Shown: positions 2,050-63,346 of the stretch, in pieces | Position numbering within the stretch: position 1 is the stretch's first letter | Layout of the letters: every line of letters starts with the position of its first letter | Source: an uncultured Dokdonia sp. | Lineage (GTDB): Bacteria; Bacteroidota; Bacteroidia; Flavobacteriales; Flavobacteriaceae | DNA length: 64,000 bases | NCBI GenBank assembly: GCA_938002835.1 | Contig: CALKZS010000070.1 | Coordinates: 1,560 to 65,559, forward strand | Direction of reading: 5' to 3' | Position numbers and translations under genes: made by a program | The notes under the pieces: model-generated | What the model was told of the DNA's origin: nothing | The model's database searches: none | The model's input: only the letters and a program-made list of their open reading frames with translations

Positions 2050-2294
2050 TATTTATTTCTTTTCTCTGGTACAGGATCATATCCTGTTTTACTCCAGGGG
2101 TGGCAAGAAAAAATACGTTTTATAGAAAGCCATCCTCCAGATATAAGACCGTGTCTTTCTAATGCTGTTTTTGTATAGTGAGAACAGGTGGGTGTGTACC
2201 TGCAAGAACTAGGAGTCCAGGAAGAAATAAACTTTTGGTAAAACCAAATAATTCCTAAAAAAGGAGCAACAGCTATTTTTTTTATAGAACTCAT
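2049..2294 (-). CDS. yidD: Membrane protein insertion efficiency factor YidD
   Basis: [10 protein letters not shown]...RIFSCHPW...GYDPVP signature. Confidence 0.95.
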
Positions 2295-3778
2295 TAATTA
2301 ACCGTAAATGTGGTTCCTTCACGACCATCTTTAAGCTGGATCCCTAATTCAATAAGCTCATCACGTATTTTATCACTTAACGCAAAGTCTTTATTTTCTC
2401 TCGCTTCTTTGCGCAGTTTTATAAGTAACTCAACAGTTCCGTTAAGTTTTGAGTCGTCCGCTTTCGCGAAAGCGTCACCATTTTCGAGCCCTAAAACATC
2501 AAACACAAATGCATTCATTGTGTTAATGAGCAATTTTAGGTCGTTTTCTGTGAGCTCAACTTTTCCATCTTTTACAAGGTGTATCTGTTTTACACCGTCA
2601 AAAAGATGAGCAATGAGAATAGGTGTGTTAAAATCATCATTCATTGCATTGTAGCAAGACTGTTTCCAGGCAGCAACGTCAAATGTACTTTTATTAGATG
2701 TTTGTAAGCTTTTTGCAATTTTAAGAGCTTCCATTAGTCTGTTAAAGCCTTTTTCACTCGCTAGTAATGCATCGTTGCTAAAATCCATAATGCTACGATA
2801 ACTAGTTTGTAAGATGAAAAATCGTGCAACACTTGGAGCAAAACCTTTTGTTAAATGTTTACTTTCTCCAGTAAATATCTCACCGGGGTTAATGCTGTTT
2901 CCAGTGCTTTTTGCCATTTTTTGCCCATTAAGTGTGAGCATATTTGCGTGCATCCAGTATTTTACGGGTTCTTTGCCAAGTGCAGCCTCATTTTGGGCAA
3001 TCTCACACTCGTGATGCGGAAACTTAAGATCCATACCACCACCGTGTATATCAAATTGTTCTCCTAAATATTTTGTGCTCATTGCAGTACATTCAAGATG
3101 CCATCCGGGAAAACCATCTCCCCAAGGAGAAGGCCAGCGCATTATGTGTTGCGGTTCGGCTTTTTTCCATAAAGCAAAATCTTGCGGATTTTCTTTTTCG
3201 CTTTGTGAAGTGAGCGCGCGTGTATTTGCAATCATATCTTCTAGCTTTCTGCCAGAAAGTTTACCATACTCGTGATCTTTATTAAACTTTACTACATCAA
3301 AATATACAGAACCATTTTTTTCATAAGCATAGCCATTTACTATTATCTTTTTGATAAGTTCTATCTGCTCAATAATGTGACCTGTCGCTGTGGGCTCAAT
3401 ACTAGGTGGTAAGAAATTAAATTTATTTAAGATGTTATGAAAGTCTACAGTATACTGTTGTACTACTTCCATAGGTTCAATTTTTTCTAAACGAGCTTTT
3501 TTTGCAATCTTATCTTCACCTTCATCTGCATCGTCTGTAAGGTGACCAGCATCTGTAATATTACGAACGTATCTTACTTTGTATCCTAGATGTTTTAGGT
3601 ATCTAAAGATCATATCAAAACTCATAAATGTGCGCACATTACCTAGGTGCACATTACTATATACCGTAGGGCCGCATACATACATACCTACATATCCTTC
3701 TAAAAGGGATTCAAAAGGTTCTTTTTTTCCTGTAATAGAATTGTAAATCGTAAGTTGTTGCTCTGTATATAAAGGCAT
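2294..3778 (-). CDS. cysS: Cysteine--tRNA ligase
   Basis: [12 protein letters not shown] (HIGH-like), [14 protein letters not shown] (KMSKS-like). Confidence 0.98.
2459..2474. repeat. Palindrome copy 1, CGCTTTCGCGAAAGCG, inside cysS (AFAKA frame)
   Basis: Exact 16-mer read from sequence. Confidence 0.97.
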
Positions 3779-3884: not shown

Positions 3885-3900
3885 CGCTTTCGCGAAAGCG
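3885..3900. repeat. Palindrome copy 2, intergenic upstream of cysS
   Basis: Exact 16-mer. Confidence 0.97.
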
Positions 3901-11276: not shown

Positions 11277-11292
11277 CGCTTTCGCGAAAGCG
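11277..11292. repeat. Palindrome copy 3, between tatC and the CMD gene (extends to 18 bp)
   Basis: Exact 16-mer with A/T flanks. Confidence 0.97.
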
Positions 11293-15469: not shown

Positions 15470-15485
15470 CGCTTTCGCGAAAGCG
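15470..15485. repeat. Palindrome copy 4, between the recQ stop and a TACATTTG promoter element
   Basis: Exact 16-mer. Confidence 0.97.
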
Positions 15486-15524: not shown

Positions 15525-15758
15525 ATGTTAATAAAACTAATATATAAAATAAGGTACTTTTTTGAAAAGCACGGATTTTATGTATCCTCTCGTCTTGCAG
15601 ATAGATTAGGAATGAGAGCAAAAAATGTTCGATTGTTTTTTATTTATGCCTCATTTGCAACCCTGGGAATAGGTTTTGTGCTTTATCTTATAGTGGCTTT
15701 TTGGCTCAAATTAAAAGACCTTGTATACACAAAGCGGACTTCTGTTTTTGATCTTTAA
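15525..15758 (+). CDS. PspC-like small membrane protein (start revised from 15498)
   Basis: RLADRLGMRAKNVRLFFIYASF pattern of Bacteroidota PspC-domain proteins. Confidence 0.75.
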   Translation: MLIKLIYKIRYFFEKHGFYVSSRLADRLGMRAKNVRLFFIYASFATLGIGFVLYLIVAFWLKLKDLVYTKRTSVFDL

Positions 15759-18680: not shown

Positions 18681-19550
18681 ATGAGTAGTTTAAAATCCCA
18701 CGTTATTTACGATGCACGTAAAAGACGTGGGATTTTGTTTTTTGCATTGATTATTATTTTAGTGACCATCATCATCATATGGTATCATCCCAATAAGACT
18801 GTTGATATCTCTGAAATCGAACAGCTAAAAGTTGAAAACCTTCAAAGAGAAATTGATTCCCTTAAAAGTATAGCTATAGAGAACAGCAAACCTAAGATAT
18901 ATCCATTTAACCCTAATTTTATAACAGACTATCGTGGTTATACATTAGGTATGACTCCAGAAGAGATAGATAGATTGTTGCGCTTTCGCGAAAGCGGGAA
19001 ATGGATAAATTCTACACGAGATTTTAAAAATGTAACTCAAGTGTCCGATTCTTTGCTGGCTATTATTTCTCCTTATTTTAAATTTCCTCAATGGGTTACA
19101 AACACGAAGCCAACAACAAATACTACTACTAAGTGGAAAACGAAGGAACAAAAACAAGAGCTAAATAAACTGACCTATGAGTCTTTGTTGGAAATAGATG
19201 GAGTGAATGAACAGGATGCAACAAAGATAATAACACATCTCAATAAAGTTGGAGGTTATCAAGTAGACCAACAGCTATACGATGTATATGGGGTATCTTC
19301 TAAAGTAAAGCGATTAGTGCTTAATGATTATACAGTCAAAGAAAAACCAAAAATTGAATTAATTAATGTAAATACCGCAACTGCTTCAGATCTTTCTACT
19401 ATTCCTTTGCTTAACTTTGAACTAGCAAAAGAGATTGTAGATTATCGCATATTGAGAGAAGGAATAAAATCTCTTGAAGAGCTTCAAAAATTAGATGGGA
19501 TGACCGATTATAAATTTGAAAGAATAAAGCTATATTTACATATAAATTAA
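18681..19550 (+). CDS. ComEA-like helix-hairpin-helix DNA-binding protein
   Basis: One TM, FNPN motif, INVNTATASDLSTIP HhH repeat. Confidence 0.82.
   Translation: MSSLKSHVIYDARKRRGILFFALIIILVTIIIIWYHPNKTVDISEIEQLKVENLQREIDSLKSIAIENSKPKIYPFNPNFITDYRGYTLGMTPEEIDRLLRFRESGKWINSTRDFKNVTQVSDSLLAIISPYFKFPQWVTNTKPTTNTTTKWKTKEQKQELNKLTYESLLEIDGVNEQDATKIITHLNKVGGYQVDQQLYDVYGVSSKVKRLVLNDYTVKEKPKIELINVNTATASDLSTIPLLNFELAKEIVDYRILREGIKSLEELQKLDGMTDYKFERIKLYLHIN
18981..18996. repeat. Palindrome copy 5, inside the ComEA-like gene (RFRES frame)
   Basis: Exact 16-mer. Confidence 0.97.
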
Positions 19551-23074: not shown

Positions 23075-23090
23075 CGCTTTCGCGAAAGCG
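23075..23090. repeat. Palindrome copy 6, in the tRNA-Gly/tRNA-Thr spacer
   Basis: Exact 16-mer ending 10 nt before tRNA-Thr. Confidence 0.97.
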
Positions 23091-27754: not shown

Positions 27755-27808
27755 AAAGGTTTAGGTTGATTGCGCTTTCGCGAAAGCGTAATTTGACCTA
27801 AACCATTT
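27755..27808 (+). terminator. Long hairpin after rplL whose apex is palindrome copy 7
   Basis: GGTTTAGGTT/GACCTAAACC arms continuing through GATTG/TAATT into the palindrome. Confidence 0.65.
27773..27788. repeat. Palindrome copy 7, rplL-rpoB spacer
   Basis: Exact 16-mer. Confidence 0.97.
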
Positions 27809-31787: not shown

Positions 31788-31801
31788 GCTTTCGCGAAAG
31801 C
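31788..31801. repeat. Palindrome copy 8 (14-bp core), rpoB-rpoC spacer, abutting a small hairpin at 31770-31787
   Basis: GCTTTCGCGAAAGC exact; flanks C/A. Confidence 0.97.
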
Positions 31802-36148: not shown

Positions 36149-36168
36149 TACGCTTTCGCGAAAGCGTA
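36149..36168. repeat. Palindrome copy 9 (20 bp, TACGCTTTCGCGAAAGCGTA), starting immediately after the rpoC stop
   Basis: Exact. Confidence 0.97.
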
Positions 36169-41215: not shown

Positions 41216-41231
41216 CGCTTTCGCGAAAGCG
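41216..41231. repeat. Palindrome copy 11, in the predicted ndk 5' leader
   Basis: Exact 16-mer. Confidence 0.97.
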
Positions 41232-43855: not shown

Positions 43856-43871
43856 TGCTTTCGCGAAAGCA
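43856..43871. repeat. Palindrome copy 12, TGCTTTCGCGAAAGCA (symmetric T/A flank variant)
   Basis: Exact core; both outer bases differ from CG but remain complementary. Confidence 0.97.
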
Positions 43872-47021: not shown

Positions 47022-47996
47022 TTTATCTATAAAGTTTATACATATCATCCTAATCATAAAAACGAGTGGAATGCTTTTGTAGCCATTTCTAAAAATGCCA
47101 CATTTTTGCATAACCGAGATTTTGTAGAGTATCACTCAGATAGATTTTTAGATCATTCATTAATAGTAAAAAAGGGAGAGCATATAGTTGCATTAGTACC
47201 AGCACATAAAGCAGGTGCTATAGTGCATAGCCATCAAGGGCTTACGTATGGTGGGATTTTGCTTTCGCGAAAGCAAAAAACGAAAGATACTCTCGAGATA
47301 GTAAAGGCAATACTTCTATTTCTAGAAAGTCAAGGTATCCTTAGACTTTCCATTAAGCCAGCACCACATTTTTATATGAAGCAACCTAGTGAGGAGATAG
47401 CTTATGTGTTACAATTATTAAATGCAAATTGTTACCGTATAGATACAGCCTCTGTAATAGATAATCGAGATAGATTACCCATACAGTCTAATAGAGTAGA
47501 AGGTGTGAGAAAAGCGCAGAAAAAGGGATTAATTATCAAGGAAGAAGCTGTTTTTAATGATTTCTGGCAACAAATTTTAGTGCCTAATCTCACAAAAAAA
47601 TATCAATCAAAACCTACACACACCCTTGAAGAAATAGTGTTGCTACAACACTGCTTTTCAAATAACATTAGACAGTTCAATGTATATGATGGGAAAGAAA
47701 TAGTAGGAGGAACTACTATTTTTGAAACTTCGACAGTAGCGCACGTTCAATATATCTCTGGTAATGATAATAAACAAGAGTTAGGAACATTAGATTTTCT
47801 TTTTCATTATCTCATTACAGATATATTTGCTCATAAAAGGTATTTTGACTTTGGGATTTCAAATGAAAATCAAGGAAAAAACCTAAATAGCGGATTGTCA
47901 TATTGGAAAGAATGTTTTGGTGCGCGCACGTTTGTACACAGACATTATGAAGTAGAAACTAAGAATCATTCACTTTTAAATGATGTGTTAATATGA
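47022..47996 (+). CDS. GNAT/FemAB-like acyltransferase; family-like N-terminus extends to 47022 but the first canonical start is TTG 47106
   Basis: W..FV..SKNATFLHNRDF.EYHSDRF, HQGLTYGG, FDFGISNE, WKECFGAR. Confidence 0.8.
   Translation, partial: FIYKVYTYHPNHKNEWNAFVAISKNATFLHNRDFVEYHSDRFLDHSLIVKKGEHIVALVPAHKAGAIVHSHQGLTYGGILLSRKQKTKDTLEIVKAILLFLESQGILRLSIKPAPHFYMKQPSEEIAYVLQLLNANCYRIDTASVIDNRDRLPIQSNRVEGVRKAQKKGLIIKEEAVFNDFWQQILVPNLTKKYQSKPTHTLEEIVLLQHCFSNNIRQFNVYDGKEIVGGTTIFETSTVAHVQYISGNDNKQELGTLDFLFHYLITDIFAHKRYFDFGISNENQGKNLNSGLSYWKECFGARTFVHRHYEVETKNHSLLNDVLI
47257..47278. repeat. Palindrome copy 13 (22 bp, TTTT-core-AAAA), inside the GNAT gene (LSRK frame)
   Basis: Exact core 47261-47274. 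Confidence 0.97.
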
Positions 47997-49099: not shown

Positions 49100-50394
49100 G
49101 GAAGTTGTATGGTAAGATTACAAACAACCTACTTTTAAAGATTACTTCTTTAAATGCCATAGCAGTATTATTCCAAATAATAGGAGGTTTTATCACTTCA
49201 AAACTCATTGCAATTTATTTAGGTGAACGAGGAATGGCATTGTTAGGATATTTGCGCAATTTTTTGACCACCACACAGGCTATAGCAAACCTAGGTTATA
49301 GTAATGGCGTTGTAAAATATGTAGCTTCTCATAAAGATAATAAACCGTTATTATCAAAGATGTTGTCATCTTCTATTATTATGAGTTTTGTTGCCTCCAT
49401 AATAATTTCTGTGATATTGTATGTAGGAGCTCCGTTCTGGAATAATGCCGTTTTTGGAAGAGACATATCTTATGTCTATATATTTAAATATCTTGCTTTT
49501 GCTATTCCTTTTATCACAGCAAATAGTATTCTGATTGCAATTATAAATGGACAATCTGCCTATAAAAAAGTGGTATGGATTAATATAGTGACTAATGCAA
49601 TGGGTATTGGGATTACCGCCTATTTGATCATCACAAAAGGAATAGAAGGAGCATTTATTGCAATGGTGATAAGTCCAGCTATTGCAGTATTAGTCACATT
49701 AATTTTAATAGGAAAACAAGCTAGACTTCTAAGATTATTAGTTGCCAAAGTATCATTTACGGCCATAAAGAAAATGAGTTCATACACCATTATGGCTGTT
49801 TTTTCTATGATGGTTTTACCTTTGGTTTATATTGCGATACGTAATCAAATTGTAACTTCAAGCGGAATTGAAGCAGCGGGTTATTGGGACGCGATGACAC
49901 GTATTTCTGATTATTACATCAAGTTTGTAGCTACAGTGATGACTTTGTATATATTACCACAGCTTGCAAAAACAACAACTGATGTTGCATTTAGAAAAGA
50001 GATTTTTGCGTTTTATAAAACAATATTGCCTTTGTATGGTGTAGGTTTGCTAATAATATTTTTATCTAGAAAGTTTATTATCCAGATACTGTTTACAGAA
50101 GATTTTATACCTGTATCATCGCTTTTTAAATGGCAATTATTAGGAGATTTTTTTAAGGTAGCCTCTCTGGTGATAGGATATCAAATTATTGCTAAAAATA
50201 ATTTAAAACTCTTTCTATTCACTGAGATTATCTCTCTTATAGTAATATATATATCAGGAATTTATTTTGTAAAATTGTATGGGTATGAAGGTGGTGCCAT
50301 AGGACATTGTTTAAGTTATTTTGTGCATTTATTAATGTTACTGTTTATCTTTAGAAAACCACTTTTTGGAAAAATAAAAGAAGCCAGTGCGTAG
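49093..50394 (+). CDS. wzx: O-antigen/oligosaccharide flippase (WzxE-like)
   Basis: About 12 TM, G..GMA..G..RNF, AGYWDAM.RISD, WQLLGDFFK. Confidence 0.88.
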   Translation: MLGKLYGKITNNLLLKITSLNAIAVLFQIIGGFITSKLIAIYLGERGMALLGYLRNFLTTTQAIANLGYSNGVVKYVASHKDNKPLLSKMLSSSIIMSFVASIIISVILYVGAPFWNNAVFGRDISYVYIFKYLAFAIPFITANSILIAIINGQSAYKKVVWINIVTNAMGIGITAYLIITKGIEGAFIAMVISPAIAVLVTLILIGKQARLLRLLVAKVSFTAIKKMSSYTIMAVFSMMVLPLVYIAIRNQIVTSSGIEAAGYWDAMTRISDYYIKFVATVMTLYILPQLAKTTTDVAFRKEIFAFYKTILPLYGVGLLIIFLSRKFIIQILFTEDFIPVSSLFKWQLLGDFFKVASLVIGYQIIAKNNLKLFLFTEIISLIVIYISGIYFVKLYGYEGGAIGHCLSYFVHLLMLLFIFRKPLFGKIKEASA

Positions 50395-50917
50395 ATTAGG
50401 ATCTTTCATACAGTTTTTTCGTATTCTTAAATACAAGTTACTTTCAACAAATAAACACATTGAAGGTAAAGCAATAGTACATCAACCTGCTCAGGTAAAT
50501 GGAGAAGGGGTAATACGCTTTCGCGAAAGCGTACACATAGGGGTCACAAATTCACCCCAGTTTTATAATACATATGCATATATAGAGGCTCGAAAGAAAG
50601 GGAGTGAGATTGTTTTTGGAGAGAATGTAGCAATCAATAATAACTTTTGTGCAATTGCAAATGAATCGTCTATTACTATTGGAGATCATACCACGATAGG
50701 ATATAACGTATCAATTTATAACTGTAACTTTCATAGTCTTGACCCTGAAAAACGAAGAGAAGAAACTGGTAGTAGTAAACCTGTATATATCGGGAAGAAT
50801 GTTTTTATAGGAAATAACGTAAGCATTTGGAAAGGTGTCACCATAGGAGACAATGCTATTATACCCGCAGGAAGTATTGTAAAAGTTGATGGCTTAGAAG
50901 GAAGTACTTTTTCTTAA
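50387..50917 (+). CDS. Left-handed beta-helix O-acyltransferase (GTG start)
   Basis: Hexapeptide repeats, PVYIGKNVFIG, KGVTIGDNAII. Confidence 0.87.
   Translation: MRRLGSFIQFFRILKYKLLSTNKHIEGKAIVHQPAQVNGEGVIRFRESVHIGVTNSPQFYNTYAYIEARKKGSEIVFGENVAINNNFCAIANESSITIGDHTTIGYNVSIYNCNFHSLDPEKRREETGSSKPVYIGKNVFIGNNVSIWKGVTIGDNAIIPAGSIVKVDGLEGSTFS
50514..50533. repeat. Palindrome copy 14 (20 bp), inside the acyltransferase gene (RFRES frame)
   Basis: Exact. Confidence 0.97.
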
Positions 50918-53104: not shown

Positions 53105-54187
53105 TTGTCTAAAGATACTCATAAAAAAATTGCATTAATTACGATTTCACTCGCTGGAGGAGGTGCAGAGAAATCTACAGCATTGCTTTCTAAAATGTTA
53201 GATCACAAAGGGTTTGAAGTACATATAATTGTACTAAACGACGCTATAGATTTTTCATATGCTGGGAAGTTGTATAATATGGGGATTTTTAAAAAAAAAG
53301 GAGATTCTATTTTAAAAAAAGTCAAACGCTTTACAGCGCTTAGAAAATACATTAAGAAAGAAGATTTTGACTTTATCATTGATAATAGGAGTAGAGATAA
53401 TACTATTAAAGAGCGCTTTTATCTGTATTACATTTATAAAAATCAACAGGTCATATATGTATCACGTAGTTTTAAGTTAGATAATTATTTTACTAATGAT
53501 AGTAAAATAGGTCAACAGATGATTCAGAAATCTTCTGGAGTTATTGGAGTATCTCAAGCAATAAGTAAAGAGATAAACCAGAAGTATAATACACAAAAGG
53601 CTGTTACAATATATAACCCGGTAGAATTTATCGATGTTTCGTCAGTTATGGAAATAGATGTCCCTTACTTCATTTTTGTGGGTAGACTTTTAGACAAGGT
53701 AAAAAATGTGAGTTTGTTGATTAACGCTTTCGCGAAAGCTAAAAAAGAAAACCACCATCTTAAGATATATGGTGATGGGATTGATAAAGAACGCCTTATG
53801 ATACTTTCTAAAACCTTAGGGATGGATAATAAAATATTATTCTATCCATTTAAAGAAGATATTTATCAAGATATTGCAGCTGCAAAGGCTTTACTTTTAA
53901 CCAGTCATTATGAAGGATTTCCTAGAGTGCTCATAGAGGCATTGTCTATGGGAACTCCTGTGATAAGTGTAGATTGCCAAAGCGGGCCCAATGAAGTTAT
54001 AACTCATAAAGAAAATGGGTTGCTAGTAAAAAACTATGATCAAGTTGTATTTACAGAAGCTATAGAATCTTTTATATTTGACACCGATTTGTATACTACT
54101 TGTAAACAGAATGCAGTAAAGAGTGTAAGTCACTTGAAAACAGATATTATTGCATCACAATGGAGCGATTATTTAAATAAAATATAA
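53105..54187 (+). CDS. GT4 glycosyltransferase (TTG start)
   Basis: GGGAEK, FVGRL, EGFPRVLIEA, HKENGLLV. Confidence 0.92.
   Translation: MSKDTHKKIALITISLAGGGAEKSTALLSKMLDHKGFEVHIIVLNDAIDFSYAGKLYNMGIFKKKGDSILKKVKRFTALRKYIKKEDFDFIIDNRSRDNTIKERFYLYYIYKNQQVIYVSRSFKLDNYFTNDSKIGQQMIQKSSGVIGVSQAISKEINQKYNTQKAVTIYNPVEFIDVSSVMEIDVPYFIFVGRLLDKVKNVSLLINAFAKAKKENHHLKIYGDGIDKERLMILSKTLGMDNKILFYPFKEDIYQDIAAAKALLLTSHYEGFPRVLIEALSMGTPVISVDCQSGPNEVITHKENGLLVKNYDQVVFTEAIESFIFDTDLYTTCKQNAVKSVSHLKTDIIASQWSDYLNKI
53726..53739. repeat. Palindrome copy 15 (14-bp core), inside the GT4 gene (AFAKA frame)
   Basis: Exact core; flanks C/T. Confidence 0.97.
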
Positions 54188-60281: not shown

Positions 60282-60301
60282 TACGCTTTCGCGAAAGCGT
60301 A
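60282..60301. repeat. Palindrome copy 16 (20 bp), in the predicted TPR-gene leader
   Basis: Exact. Confidence 0.97.
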
Positions 60302-60325: not shown

Positions 60326-63300
60326 ATGCATAGAATCAAGTATCTACTTGTAGCATTTATTTTATACACAACAGCTTCTGTAGCACAACAAACAGCTATA
60401 TATACAAATGACCTTGCTGCATTTAATAAAGCATTGTCATTATATAATAGCAATCAATATCTGGCATCTCAAACACTTTTTGAAGAAGTAAAAGCAGCCT
60501 CAACAGATGAAACTGTAAAGGGTGATTGTGCATATTATATAGCAAATGCAGCAGTACGACTTAACCAGCAAGGTGCAGATAATCTAATGTTAGAATTTGT
60601 AACAGATTATCCTACTAGTACCAAACGTAATAGCGCATTTTTAGATGTAGCGTCTTATTATTTTGAAAATGGAAAATATTCATATGCCAGAAAATGGTAT
60701 GATCGTGTAGAAGAAAAAAACCTTTCTGGATCAGAGCGCGAAACCTATGATTTTAATAATGGATATGCATACTTTAAAAATGATCGTTTTGAAGAAGCAA
60801 AAAAATACCTCAATCGTGTAAGAGATTCAAAAAAATATGGATCACAAGCAAAGTACTACATAGGCTTTATGGCATATGAAGGTGATGATTATGATCAAGC
60901 AAATGAGTTGTTTAATGAAGTAGAGGCCGAAACTGGAGGAGAGTACAATGAAGATTTAGCCTATTTTAAAGCAGATCTTAATTTTAAGTTAGGAAAATTT
61001 GACGAAGCAATTGCAGAAGGAAAATCACAACTCCCAAGAGCCACCGCTGCCGAAAAATCTGAACTAAACAAGATTATAGGAGAAAGCTACTTTAATCAAG
61101 AAAAATATGCAGAGGCATTGCCCTATTTAAAGGAATATAAAGGTAAACGCGGTAAGTGGAATAATACAGACTATTATCAACTAGGATATACATATTATAA
61201 ACAAGGAGATTATCAAAATGCAATTAACGAGTTTAATAAAATAGTAGATGGTCGTAATAGCACTGCTCAAAACGCATATTATCACCTAGCAGAATCGTAC
61301 CTAAAATTAGATAAAAAGCAAGAAGCACTAAATGCATTTAAAAATGCTTCAGAGATGGAGTTTGATGCAAAAATTAAAGAAGATAGTGGTCTTAATTATG
61401 CAAAACTAAGTTATGAGATGGGAAATGCATATAAACCTACACCTACAGTTATTTCAGATTATTTAAAGGAGTATCCTAAAACGCAAGCAAAAGAAGAGCT
61501 TCAAACATTATTAATAGACTCATATATTACTTCAAAAAACTATAAAGAAGCAATGCGTTTATTAGAAAGTAATAGTAATGCAGATAATAAAGCGGCATAT
61601 CAAAAAGTGGCTTTTTTATATGGATTAGAACTCTATAATGAAGGTAATTACCCAGATGCAGATAAAGCATTTAAAAAATCTTTAAAAGAACCTCGTGATC
61701 CATTATATGTTACAAGAGCTACATATTGGGTAGCAGAAGGAGATTATATAGCAAATGATTTTAAAGAAGCAATCATAGGCTATAAAGACTTTATGAATAC
61801 TAGCAATGCTACAAGTACACCAGAATATATAGATGTACAATACAATCTTGCCTATGCTTATTTTTCAGACAAGCAGTATGATCAAGCAGCCATTCATTTT
61901 GAAAATTATACTAATGCTACAGATAATGATATCACAAGAAAAAATGATGCCTATTTGCGTTTAGGCGATAGCCGTTTTATATCAAGTAAATATTGGCCAG
62001 CGCTAGAAGCATATAATAGTTCTATTGCTTTAAATCAAACAGGACAAGATTATGCTACTTTTCAAAAATCAATGAGTTATGGTTTTATTAAAAAGAATGC
62101 AGAAAAGATAGATGGTCTAAAAAGTTTTTCAAGCAAATTTCCAACCTCTACATATCGTGATGACGCATTATATGAGTTAGGAAATATCTATGTAACACAA
62201 AATAAAAATGACCAAGCAATTGCAGCATACGATCAGTTGGTTCGTGATATACCTAAAAGTTCTTATGTCTCAAAAGCATTACTCAAAAAAGCATTAATTT
62301 ATGATAATAGTAACAGATCTGAAGAGGCACTTACGATCTTAAAAAAGGTGGCTCGTGATTATCCAGGAACACCAGAATCTTTACAGGCAGTGACTACAGC
62401 AAAGTTAATTTATGTAGACTTGGGTCGTGTTAATGAGTATGGGCAATGGGTAAGTACATTAGATTTTATTAGTGTAGAAGATGGAGAGCTAGATGACGCA
62501 GCATATGCGCAAGCAGAGAAGCAATATGTCGATAATAACACAGGTCAGGCAGAAAAACTTTTAAAGAGTTATTTAGAAGAATATCCTAATGGGCAGCATA
62601 CCTTAAATGCGCATTTTTATGTGGGGCAACTCGCTTTCGCGAAAGCTGACTACACAGCAACAATACCTCATTATAAGTATGTGATTTCTAAAGAGCGCAA
62701 TGAGTTTACAGAGCAAGCACTTGCAAGATTAGGTCAAGTATACCTTACCGAAAAAGATTATACAGCAGCTACACCTATTTTAAAACGATTAGAAACTGAA
62801 GCAGATTTTCCTCAGAATGTCATTTTTGCACAGTCTAACTTGATGAAATCATATTATGAGCAAGATAATTATAGTCAATCTATCACTTATGCAGAAAAAG
62901 TGCTGGATAATGTAAAGATTGATAATGCAGTAAAAAGTGATGCGCAAATAATTATAGCAAGGTCTTCTATAAAGACCAATAATGAGTCACGTGCAAAAAC
63001 AGCCTATGCAGAAGTGCAAAAAATAGCGACAGGAGCGCTAGCAGCAGAGGCTTTATATTATGATGCATATTTCAAAAATAAAGATAATGCTTATGAAGCT
63101 TCAAATGTGACTGTACAAAAACTAGCAAGTGAGTATAGTGGTTATAAAGAGTATGGAGCAAAAGGGCTGGTACTTATGGCAAAGAATTTTTATGCTTTAG
63201 GAGATGCATATCAAGCAACGTATATACTAGAAAGTGTGATAACAAACTTTACAGATTTTCCAGACGTGGTAAAAGACGCAGAAGCGCAACTTGAAATTAT

Positions 63301-63346
63301 TAAAACAAACGAAGCAAAGACAAATGCTTCTGTAGAAAAAGGATAA
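60326..63346 (+). CDS. Large exported tetratricopeptide repeat protein
   Basis: Signal peptide, serial TPR-like helices (YQLGY, AYYHLAESY, ALYELG). Confidence 0.92.
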   Translation: MHRIKYLLVAFILYTTASVAQQTAIYTNDLAAFNKALSLYNSNQYLASQTLFEEVKAASTDETVKGDCAYYIANAAVRLNQQGADNLMLEFVTDYPTSTKRNSAFLDVASYYFENGKYSYARKWYDRVEEKNLSGSERETYDFNNGYAYFKNDRFEEAKKYLNRVRDSKKYGSQAKYYIGFMAYEGDDYDQANELFNEVEAETGGEYNEDLAYFKADLNFKLGKFDEAIAEGKSQLPRATAAEKSELNKIIGESYFNQEKYAEALPYLKEYKGKRGKWNNTDYYQLGYTYYKQGDYQNAINEFNKIVDGRNSTAQNAYYHLAESYLKLDKKQEALNAFKNASEMEFDAKIKEDSGLNYAKLSYEMGNAYKPTPTVISDYLKEYPKTQAKEELQTLLIDSYITSKNYKEAMRLLESNSNADNKAAYQKVAFLYGLELYNEGNYPDADKAFKKSLKEPRDPLYVTRATYWVAEGDYIANDFKEAIIGYKDFMNTSNATSTPEYIDVQYNLAYAYFSDKQYDQAAIHFENYTNATDNDITRKNDAYLRLGDSRFISSKYWPALEAYNSSIALNQTGQDYATFQKSMSYGFIKKNAEKIDGLKSFSSKFPTSTYRDDALYELGNIYVTQNKNDQAIAAYDQLVRDIPKSSYVSKALLKKALIYDNSNRSEEALTILKKVARDYPGTPESLQAVTTAKLIYVDLGRVNEYGQWVSTLDFISVEDGELDDAAYAQAEKQYVDNNTGQAEKLLKSYLEEYPNGQHTLNAHFYVGQLAFAKADYTATIPHYKYVISKERNEFTEQALARLGQVYLTEKDYTAATPILKRLETEADFPQNVIFAQSNLMKSYYEQDNYSQSITYAEKVLDNVKIDNAVKSDAQIIIARSSIKTNNESRAKTAYAEVQKIATGALAAEALYYDAYFKNKDNAYEASNVTVQKLASEYSGYKEYGAKGLVLMAKNFYALGDAYQATYILESVITNFTDFPDVVKDAEAQLEIIKTNEAKTNASVEKG
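62633..62646. repeat. Palindrome copy 17 (14-bp core), inside the TPR gene (AFAKA frame)
   Basis: Exact core; flanks C/T. Confidence 0.97.

Follow-up and report, generated by a model that had tools for sequence, protein, structure and literature searches.

A long, exact palindromic word recurs throughout Dokdonia genomes and is constrained as DNA, not as protein

The palindrome GCTTTCGCGAAAGC is best explained, with a probability that we put at roughly 0.8, as a lineage-specific, genome-wide recognition word of Dokdonia and of one further flavobacterial genome, G053; the class of its reader is inferred, and no reader was identified. The word is an exact, perfect 14-letter palindrome, forms the core of the 16-mer CGCTTTCGCGAAAGCG and usually stands in the context TAC-word-GTA. 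The window, that is, the whole 64-kb stretch of DNA that was analysed, holds 17 exact copies against 0.01 expected and no one-mismatch variants. The assembly that contains the window (G000; 3.10 Mb, 33.4% G+C) has 612 exact copies and just 99 further sites within one mismatch. When its 14-mer palindromes are ranked, the word leads with these 612, followed by its own decay variant with 28 and then by a palindrome with 7. Mean density is one copy per about 4–5 kb. All 24 sampled Dokdonia species carry the word, at 70–906 copies, with the caveat that species within one genus are not independent samples. Among 150 other genera of Flavobacteriaceae, G053 (genus g30) alone is word-rich, with 722 copies; the rest have 0–16. 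Zero copies were found in all of the 16 other families of the order, and just 42 16-mer-containing stretches among 2.9 million viral contigs. No relevant paper was found that describes GCTTTCGCGAAAGC, Dokdonia palindromes or flavobacterial uptake sequences.

The copies in the window, in genes and then in spacers, are as follows.

18981..18996, focal copy CGCTTTCGCGAAAGCG, in the HHH_3/ComEA-like ORF 18681-19550, read as CGC TTT CGC GAA AGC = RFRES
2460..2473, copy in cysS (gene 2294-3778, minus strand), AFAKA frame, in a hypervariable linker
47261..47274, copy in ORF 47106-47996, LSRK frame; the ORF has no Pfam or NCBIfam match
50517..50530, copy in the hexapeptide acyltransferase gene 50387-50917, RFRES frame
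53726..53739, copy in the GT4 glycosyltransferase gene 53105-54187, AFAKA frame
62633..62646, copy in the TPR protein gene 60326-63346, AFAKA frame
3886..3899, intergenic copy 3′ of cysS, clear orthology for G009 only
11278..11291, intergenic copy, orthologous in G009, G002 and G018, one substitution in G007 (G7 to A)
15471..15484, intergenic copy, orthologous in G009, G002, G007 and G018, heavily diverged in G014
23076..23089, intergenic copy just 5′ of the tRNA gene that precedes tuf, orthologous in four species
27755..27808, plus strand, rplL-rpoB spacer hairpin with the word at its apex (copy at 27774)
31788..31801, rpoB-rpoC spacer copy, also in G009, G002, G007, G018 and G053
36152..36165, intergenic copy immediately past the rpoC stop codon
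38289..38302, intergenic copy
41217..41230, intergenic copy
43857..43870, intergenic copy 3′ of typA
60285..60298, intergenic copy 5′ of the TPR gene

The original prediction had named the six in-gene copies; all are exact and lie where it placed them. It had called ORF 47106-47996 a GNAT gene. The copy and its LSRK frame were borne out, and the label remains unverified because the ORF lacks a Pfam or NCBIfam match. This ORF is conserved in 32 of 33 other Dokdonia genomes, at 50–66% identity. At the rplL-rpoB hairpin, the stem GGTTTAGGTT/ACCTAAACC is kept across the genus. Its apex varies by lineage: G000 and G009 have the word there, G002 and G018 a palindrome with a TTCG loop, and G007 and G014 other sequences; the alternative palindromes differ in length by at most 1–2 bases.

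The constraint had been predicted to act on DNA and not on protein, and the claim is supported by a peptide excess, by frozen rare codons and by recoding of the focal peptide in another genus. Genes were called with our own rough model of ORFs and codons, giving 2,432 genes and 84% coding. Because this call is rough, the division of the G000 copies into 284 in genes (46%) and 328 in spacers (54% intergenic) is approximate; some copies near called gene starts may in truth lie upstream of the true start. Spacers carry the word about six times more densely than genes. All three reading frames are used genome-wide, as claimed from the window: 144 of the 284 in-gene copies are in the AFAKA frame, 61 in the xFRES frame and 79 in the LSRK frame. 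The peptides themselves, whose genome-wide over-representation had been put forward as a check, are in 8- to about 280-fold excess, and the word spells them. AFAKA is observed 181 times (0.9 expected; 144 spelled by the word), RFRES 57 times (0.2 expected; 56 spelled) and LSRK 111 times (13.4 expected; 79 spelled). The GC-rich codons singled out as unusual have synonymous shares of only 3.6–10.6% (TTC 10.6%, GCG 7.9%, CGC 10.5%, AGC 8.6%, CGA 10.2%, TCG 3.6%). The observation that no copy interrupts its reading frame holds, but it follows from the word itself, which contains no stop codon in any frame.

Codon use was compared in Dokdonia orthologues of four host genes, with conserved residues of the same genes as controls. 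Where the residue is kept, the same codon is used in 93% of cases within the word versus 51% at other conserved residues (P = 4e-10). The codon position of the focal copy is shared by 25 of 28 Dokdonia species and by G053. Across 28 other genera the site is gapless and reads x-[F/Y]-R-x-x, with 6–11 of 14 bases mismatching the word. One genome from a genus with zero word copies, G105, has RFRES at this site, encoded CGT TTC CGT GAA TCA. Motif-free relatives encoding the same peptides with the same codons would have refuted the prediction; G105 shares the peptide and spells it with other codons.

Copies were inferred at the outset to arise by substitution at tolerant protein positions and not by insertion. 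Substitution is upheld. Tolerance is half the story, as some residues fitted the word beforehand: F-R in the ComEA-like gene, A-F-A in GT4, L-S-x-K in ORF 47106 and A-x-A-x-A in the CysS linker. All six cited genes align with their orthologues in register, without an indel of 5–6 amino acids. In five Dokdonia genomes the cysS copy stands at a constant distance, 1318 bp, from the end of the gene; Leeuwenhoekiella, the closest outgroup without the word, matches it in length and reads AVADA, AAAEA or IAAES at the site. The TPR protein aligns over 300 aa with 0 gaps to that of G131 (from a genus with 16 copies), LAFAKAD facing LQFADDK. The word is present in 12 of 14 orthologues of GT4, in proteins 44–60% identical, and both losses are single synonymous changes. 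It is likewise present in 12 of 14 acyltransferase orthologues, where the two losses, RFREN and YFGKN, are in register. Orthologues of ORF 47106 carry it in 5 of 14 cases, and most others have LS[P/S/A]K in ordinary codons with no gaps. Along about 65 kb of synteny in nine genomes, all alignable differences in presence are 1–6 in-register substitutions (for example, GDAFAKAD versus GENFHKAD), and no clean unit insertion was found at a word copy. Orthologous positions of the word are retained across the genus though the proteins are only 45–65% identical.

Highly expressed genes are largely free of the word. The claim that no copy lies inside tuf, rpoB, rpoC, typA or ribosomal protein genes was confirmed in the window: tuf, nusG, rplK, rplA, rplJ, rplL, rpoB, rpoC and typA, all NCBIfam-confirmed, have no internal copy, and copies sit in adjacent spacers. 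Taken alone, absence from these window genes is not significant (about 1.5 expected). Across G000, the top 10% of codon-adapted genes contain 2 internal copies versus 23.7 expected, a 12-fold depletion (P = 1.5e-8). In-gene density declines steadily with codon adaptation, from 0.178 per kb in the lowest quartile to 0.009 per kb in the top 10%. Copies are thus placed in spacers where possible and otherwise enter genes through point substitutions, in any of the three frames that the protein tolerates locally, at sites where some residues fitted beforehand and the rest could change. DNA-level selection then keeps them, freezing synonymous positions, retaining rare codons and sparing highly expressed genes. 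Such selection cannot be separated here from conversion or uptake drive.

The prediction that the DNA is constrained needs a further refinement, as constraint extends about 18–20 nt past the word on each side. About 18 nt 5′ of the word are GT-rich and C-poor on both strands (C 6–8% versus 16.6%), so the 3′ side is AC-rich and G-poor. Within genes the skew reaches third codon positions (upstream C3 3.0% versus 10.3%; downstream G3 3.8% versus 11.2%) and first codon positions (downstream G1 15.8% versus 31.7%); the footprint of one copy is thus about 18 codons. G053, other Dokdonia species and a transferred island described below show this signature too, and viral contigs show it more weakly. 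Mirrored flank positions pair only at the rate that composition predicts, so the flanks are not a longer hairpin, and a longer hairpin at every site was excluded. Strand-polar flanks of about 18 nt at each copy are a new anatomy.

Copies are evenly spaced, with a coefficient of variation of 0.56, compared with 0.86 under a strict null that allows each spacer or gene a single copy. Gaps of <1 kb make up 3.4% versus 15.4% under that null. The rare close pairs in G000 (<900 bp; C191:4600/5285, C126:3918/4734, C86:10445/11278 and C71:5125/5545) often bracket one small gene. The word decays mostly through transitions at its outer CpG. With 28 copies, where independent decay predicts <1, the symmetric double variant GCTTTTGCAAAAGC nearly matches the 31 of the single-half variant; example sites in G000 are C5:23590, C7:20750 and C10:19017. 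This excess suggests either rapid CpG decay at dead sites or a joint change of the two halves.

In the RpoB tree, G014 is the earliest-branching Dokdonia sampled (support 100/99 for the rest). It has 70 copies genome-wide and 0 in the 43 kb syntenic to the window (G014:C2:34400-77233), where orthologous sites have diverged; at the ComEA codon it carries the symmetric variant GTTTTCGCGAAAAC. No replacement motif was found in G014, which reaches 107 copies even when transition variants are allowed. Two sites, the ComEA codon and the rpoB-rpoC spacer, are common to G053 and Dokdonia. The branch of G053 in the tree is long, and a clade that unites it with Dokdonia is not rejected by an AU test (p = 0.29); independent acquisition by G053, suggested by identity ranks, was dropped on these grounds. 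G131 keeps 12 of 14 word bases at the focal ComEA codon and is probably a relic there of a lost system. We read the whole as one old origin with later decay in some lineages; transfer of the reader is not excluded.

The word also occurs in transferred DNA. Clustered copies in other genera had been considered as a clue to the reader and turned out to be a shared metal-resistance island. This island lies in three other genera (G133:C1:2822000-2841999; G143:C1:2538000-2567999; G161:C1:432000-441999) and encodes an RND pump, an outer-membrane efflux protein, a multicopper oxidase and an AraC regulator, at 40% G+C and 75–93% DNA identity. Its efflux-protein gene contains two in-gene word copies, 933 bp apart. 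Because the island has host-like word density inside genomes otherwise without the word, its distribution suggests that it moved out of a word-writing host. A 37-kb tailed-phage contig, IMGVR_UViG_3300040781_000495, contains the 16-mer 6 times, in two cases within genes, those for the portal and the terminase; it encodes a portal, large terminase, head protease, major head, sheath and baseplate hub. Phage carriage was not decisive between drive models, as the phage may be temperate.

Candidate readers were sought among known protein families. All five genomes tested have ComEC, word-poor G014 among them, and the ComEA-like gene also occurs in word-poor genomes. Word-rich G002 lacks a PilB/GspE-type ATPase, and 35 of 150 other genera have one; the type IV pilus ATPase was on these grounds given up as an indicator of an uptake reader. 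No second ParB/Noc paralogue was found, with one ParB per genome. Canonical parS TGTTCCACGTGAAACA lies in G000 at C124:13737, and a second site, with two mismatches to the tested consensus, at 15639. Because canonical parS is present, the single ParB has ordinary targets; a ParB/Noc paralogue as the reader was set aside. Matches to PF00145, PF01555 and PF02086 (m5C, N6/N4 and Dam-type methylases) were absent above cut-off in G000 and G009. A model of m5C deamination or an orphan methylase was also discarded, as the presence of the three methylase families does not follow the word, and TCGCGA shows no avoidance elsewhere. No Rfam family overlaps a copy.

Selection of AFAKA, RFRES and LSRK at the protein level, with DNA identity as a side effect, could draw on the conservation of part of the peptide beyond the genus at some sites, F-R in the ComEA-like gene and A-F-A in GT4. 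Yet a single DNA word yields three unrelated peptides, its rare codons are fixed (same-codon fraction 0.93 versus 0.51), G105 spells RFRES differently and 54% of copies are intergenic. We give this reading almost no credence and, as judged from sequence comparison, regard it as already refuted. In-frame insertion of miniature mobile or REP-like elements would account for the number of palindromic copies, in the hundreds, and for a signal that extends into the flanks to about 50 bp in total. It does not account for six genes that all align without an indel at the copy, for recent gains and losses by 1–6 in-register substitutions, for flanks of a given copy that do not pair with each other, or for copies that are positional orthologues and not variable insertions. 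Insertion is thus very improbable and, so far as the alignments go, close to refuted.

Three further explanations keep the constraint on nucleic acid and differ in what acts on it. The word could be a by-product, without function, of biased mutation or repair, such as the methylase plus very-short-patch-type repair once proposed for HIP1. Dominance of CpG transitions in decay and the near-equal GCTTTTGCAAAAGC and single-half counts (28 versus 31) agree with this, as does the presence of the word in a phage and a transferable island, expected of a process acting on any resident DNA. It is nevertheless an improbable account: the three methylase types are absent above cut-off from G000 and G009, TCGCGA outside the word is not unusual, and such a process does not predict even spacing, deep orthologous positions or strand-polar flanks of about 18 nt. 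Still less support remains for an RNA-level signal (a terminator, processing site or stabilising hairpin), even though some copies sit at hairpins beside gene ends, such as the rplL-rpoB apex (-15 kcal/mol), and the median distance from the upstream stop codon is 37 nt. Copies occur in 19.7% of divergent, 17.6% of convergent and 17.9% of tandem spacers, and because they are equally frequent in all three a terminator is ruled out genome-wide. The bare word is a weak hairpin (-2.1 kcal/mol), no better than shuffles; its loop and stem letters are both invariant, which structure alone would not need; the T-rich side before the word and the A-rich side after it are the reverse of an intrinsic terminator; and no copy carries an Rfam family. 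The last explanation, a site for a chromosome-organising protein that binds duplex DNA and acts in the nucleoid, in segregation or in occlusion (ParB/Noc/SlmA-like), is unlikely but cannot be dismissed. Periodic HIP1 has been linked to nucleoid structure (PMC5861425). A perfect 14–16 bp palindrome is of the type used by dimeric proteins, and even spacing also fits. Against it stand the single ParB with canonical parS, the strand-asymmetric and position-independent flanks, which we infer to be atypical of duplex read-out, and the size of the set, as parS, NBS and SBS sets are far smaller than 600–900 sites.

We therefore retain the reading of GCTTTCGCGAAAGC as a genome-wide recognition word. 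By analogy, it is inferred to belong to the functional class of uptake sequences, Chi and HIP1 (PMC2817400, PMC5861425, PMC13756078). Its reader would be sequence-specific and would need roughly one site per few kb of the bacterium's own DNA. A self-DNA processing or uptake signal is the reader class that we favour, at somewhat less than even odds; there is a smaller but real chance, perhaps one in several, that the reader is something other than the options named here. Because the keto skew does not depend on position and runs towards the site from either side, we infer that the reader, or a machine under its control, tracks one DNA strand towards the word. Candidate machines would be a helicase-nuclease or a recombination or uptake pathway. 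Strand tracking is the most likely mode and our best guess, resting on composition alone; a simple duplex-binding regulator is less likely. More specifically, and only tentatively, the palindrome and its convergent GT-rich flanks may form a bidirectional single-strand 'self' signal for a translocating machine, either a Chi-like site at which a helicase-nuclease stops and loads or an entry point for uptake and recombination. If so, it would be the first long palindromic signal of the Chi-like or uptake class and the first in Bacteroidota, with a cost visible as about 18 codons recoded in each of hundreds of proteins. To our knowledge, competence has not been shown for Dokdonia, and a Chi that is a palindrome of 14 bp would have no precedent.

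Few genome-wide words are known, among them Chi, uptake sequences and HIP1, and they show how a cell discriminates self from foreign DNA and organises it. GCTTTCGCGAAAGC is unusually long and exact. It offers a clean system in cultivable marine bacteria, with fixed positions, even spacing and a measurable protein cost. G014, G131 and G067 provide natural lineages with a low or decayed word, and transferred DNA keeps the tag. If its reader were found, a new pathway of DNA handling in Bacteroidota could come to light. The word could also matter for genetic tractability and serve as a marker for tracing DNA from these bacteria.

Membership of GCTTTCGCGAAAGC in any named family is not established, because none has all its defining features shown. 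An intrinsic terminator requires a stable hairpin and a T-run at 3′ ends, which the word does not meet, and the parS/Noc type requires a ParB-family reader with a dedicated paralogue, also not met with one ParB per genome. REP/BIME elements, mobilised by RAYT transposases, resemble it in that their palindromic copies number in the hundreds, are confined to a species or genus and are enriched in spacers. REPs are imperfect and extragenic and spread as units, whereas the word is 46% genic, substitution-born and letter-perfect, so that the insertion-unit criterion of REPs and MITEs is not met.

Uptake sequences and Chi are known as short and asymmetric, not as palindromes of 14–16 bp. Chi in E. 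coli occurs at about one per 4.5–5 kb and is a self-DNA tag read on one strand by a translocating helicase-nuclease; Tracy, Chedin and Kowalczykowski are said to have located it, in 1997, in GT-rich islands. Density is similar for GCTTTCGCGAAAGC, and the islands resemble its GT-rich 5′ flanks on both strands. Chi differs in being 5–8 nt long, asymmetric and co-oriented with replication, and its asymmetry criterion is not met by a perfect palindrome. The USS of Pasteurellaceae and the DUS of Neisseriaceae share with the word hundreds to thousands of copies, restriction to a few related genera and many copies in genes. USS also have an extended, weaker flank consensus. As with the word, the peptides that they encode are inflated, and they favour genes and residues of low conservation (PMC2817400). 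Both differ in being 9–12 nt long and asymmetric, and the frames in which they are read are those with preferred codons (PMC2817400); GCTTTCGCGAAAGC uses rare codons in every frame, and a pilus-type ATPase does not track it. The USS/DUS criterion of substitution origin, inflated peptides and avoidance of conserved genes is met.

HIP1 (GCGATCGC) of cyanobacteria is, like GCTTTCGCGAAAGC, palindromic, lineage-specific and hugely over-represented in both genes and spacers. Its orthologous positions are conserved, which was taken as evidence of selection, its distribution is non-random or quasi-periodic and its function was long unknown (PMC5861425). It has been tied to transformation (bioRxiv 10.1101/2024.09.10.611283; PMC13756078), and two orphan methylases read it (PMC4390886, PMC13756078). 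HIP1 differs in being 8 bp long and far denser, up to more than one copy per gene, whereas the Dokdonia word spans 14–16 bp at one per 4–5 kb, with short-range even spacing and strand-polar flanks, in a different phylum. The tested Dokdonia genomes also lack the three main methylase families, and a cognate orphan methyltransferase, as a HIP1-type criterion, is not met for PF00145, PF01555 and PF02086 in G000 and G009. HIP1 resisted explanation for decades. The other HIP1-type criteria are met by GCTTTCGCGAAAGC, a perfect palindrome over-represented in genes and spacers whose orthologous sites are conserved.
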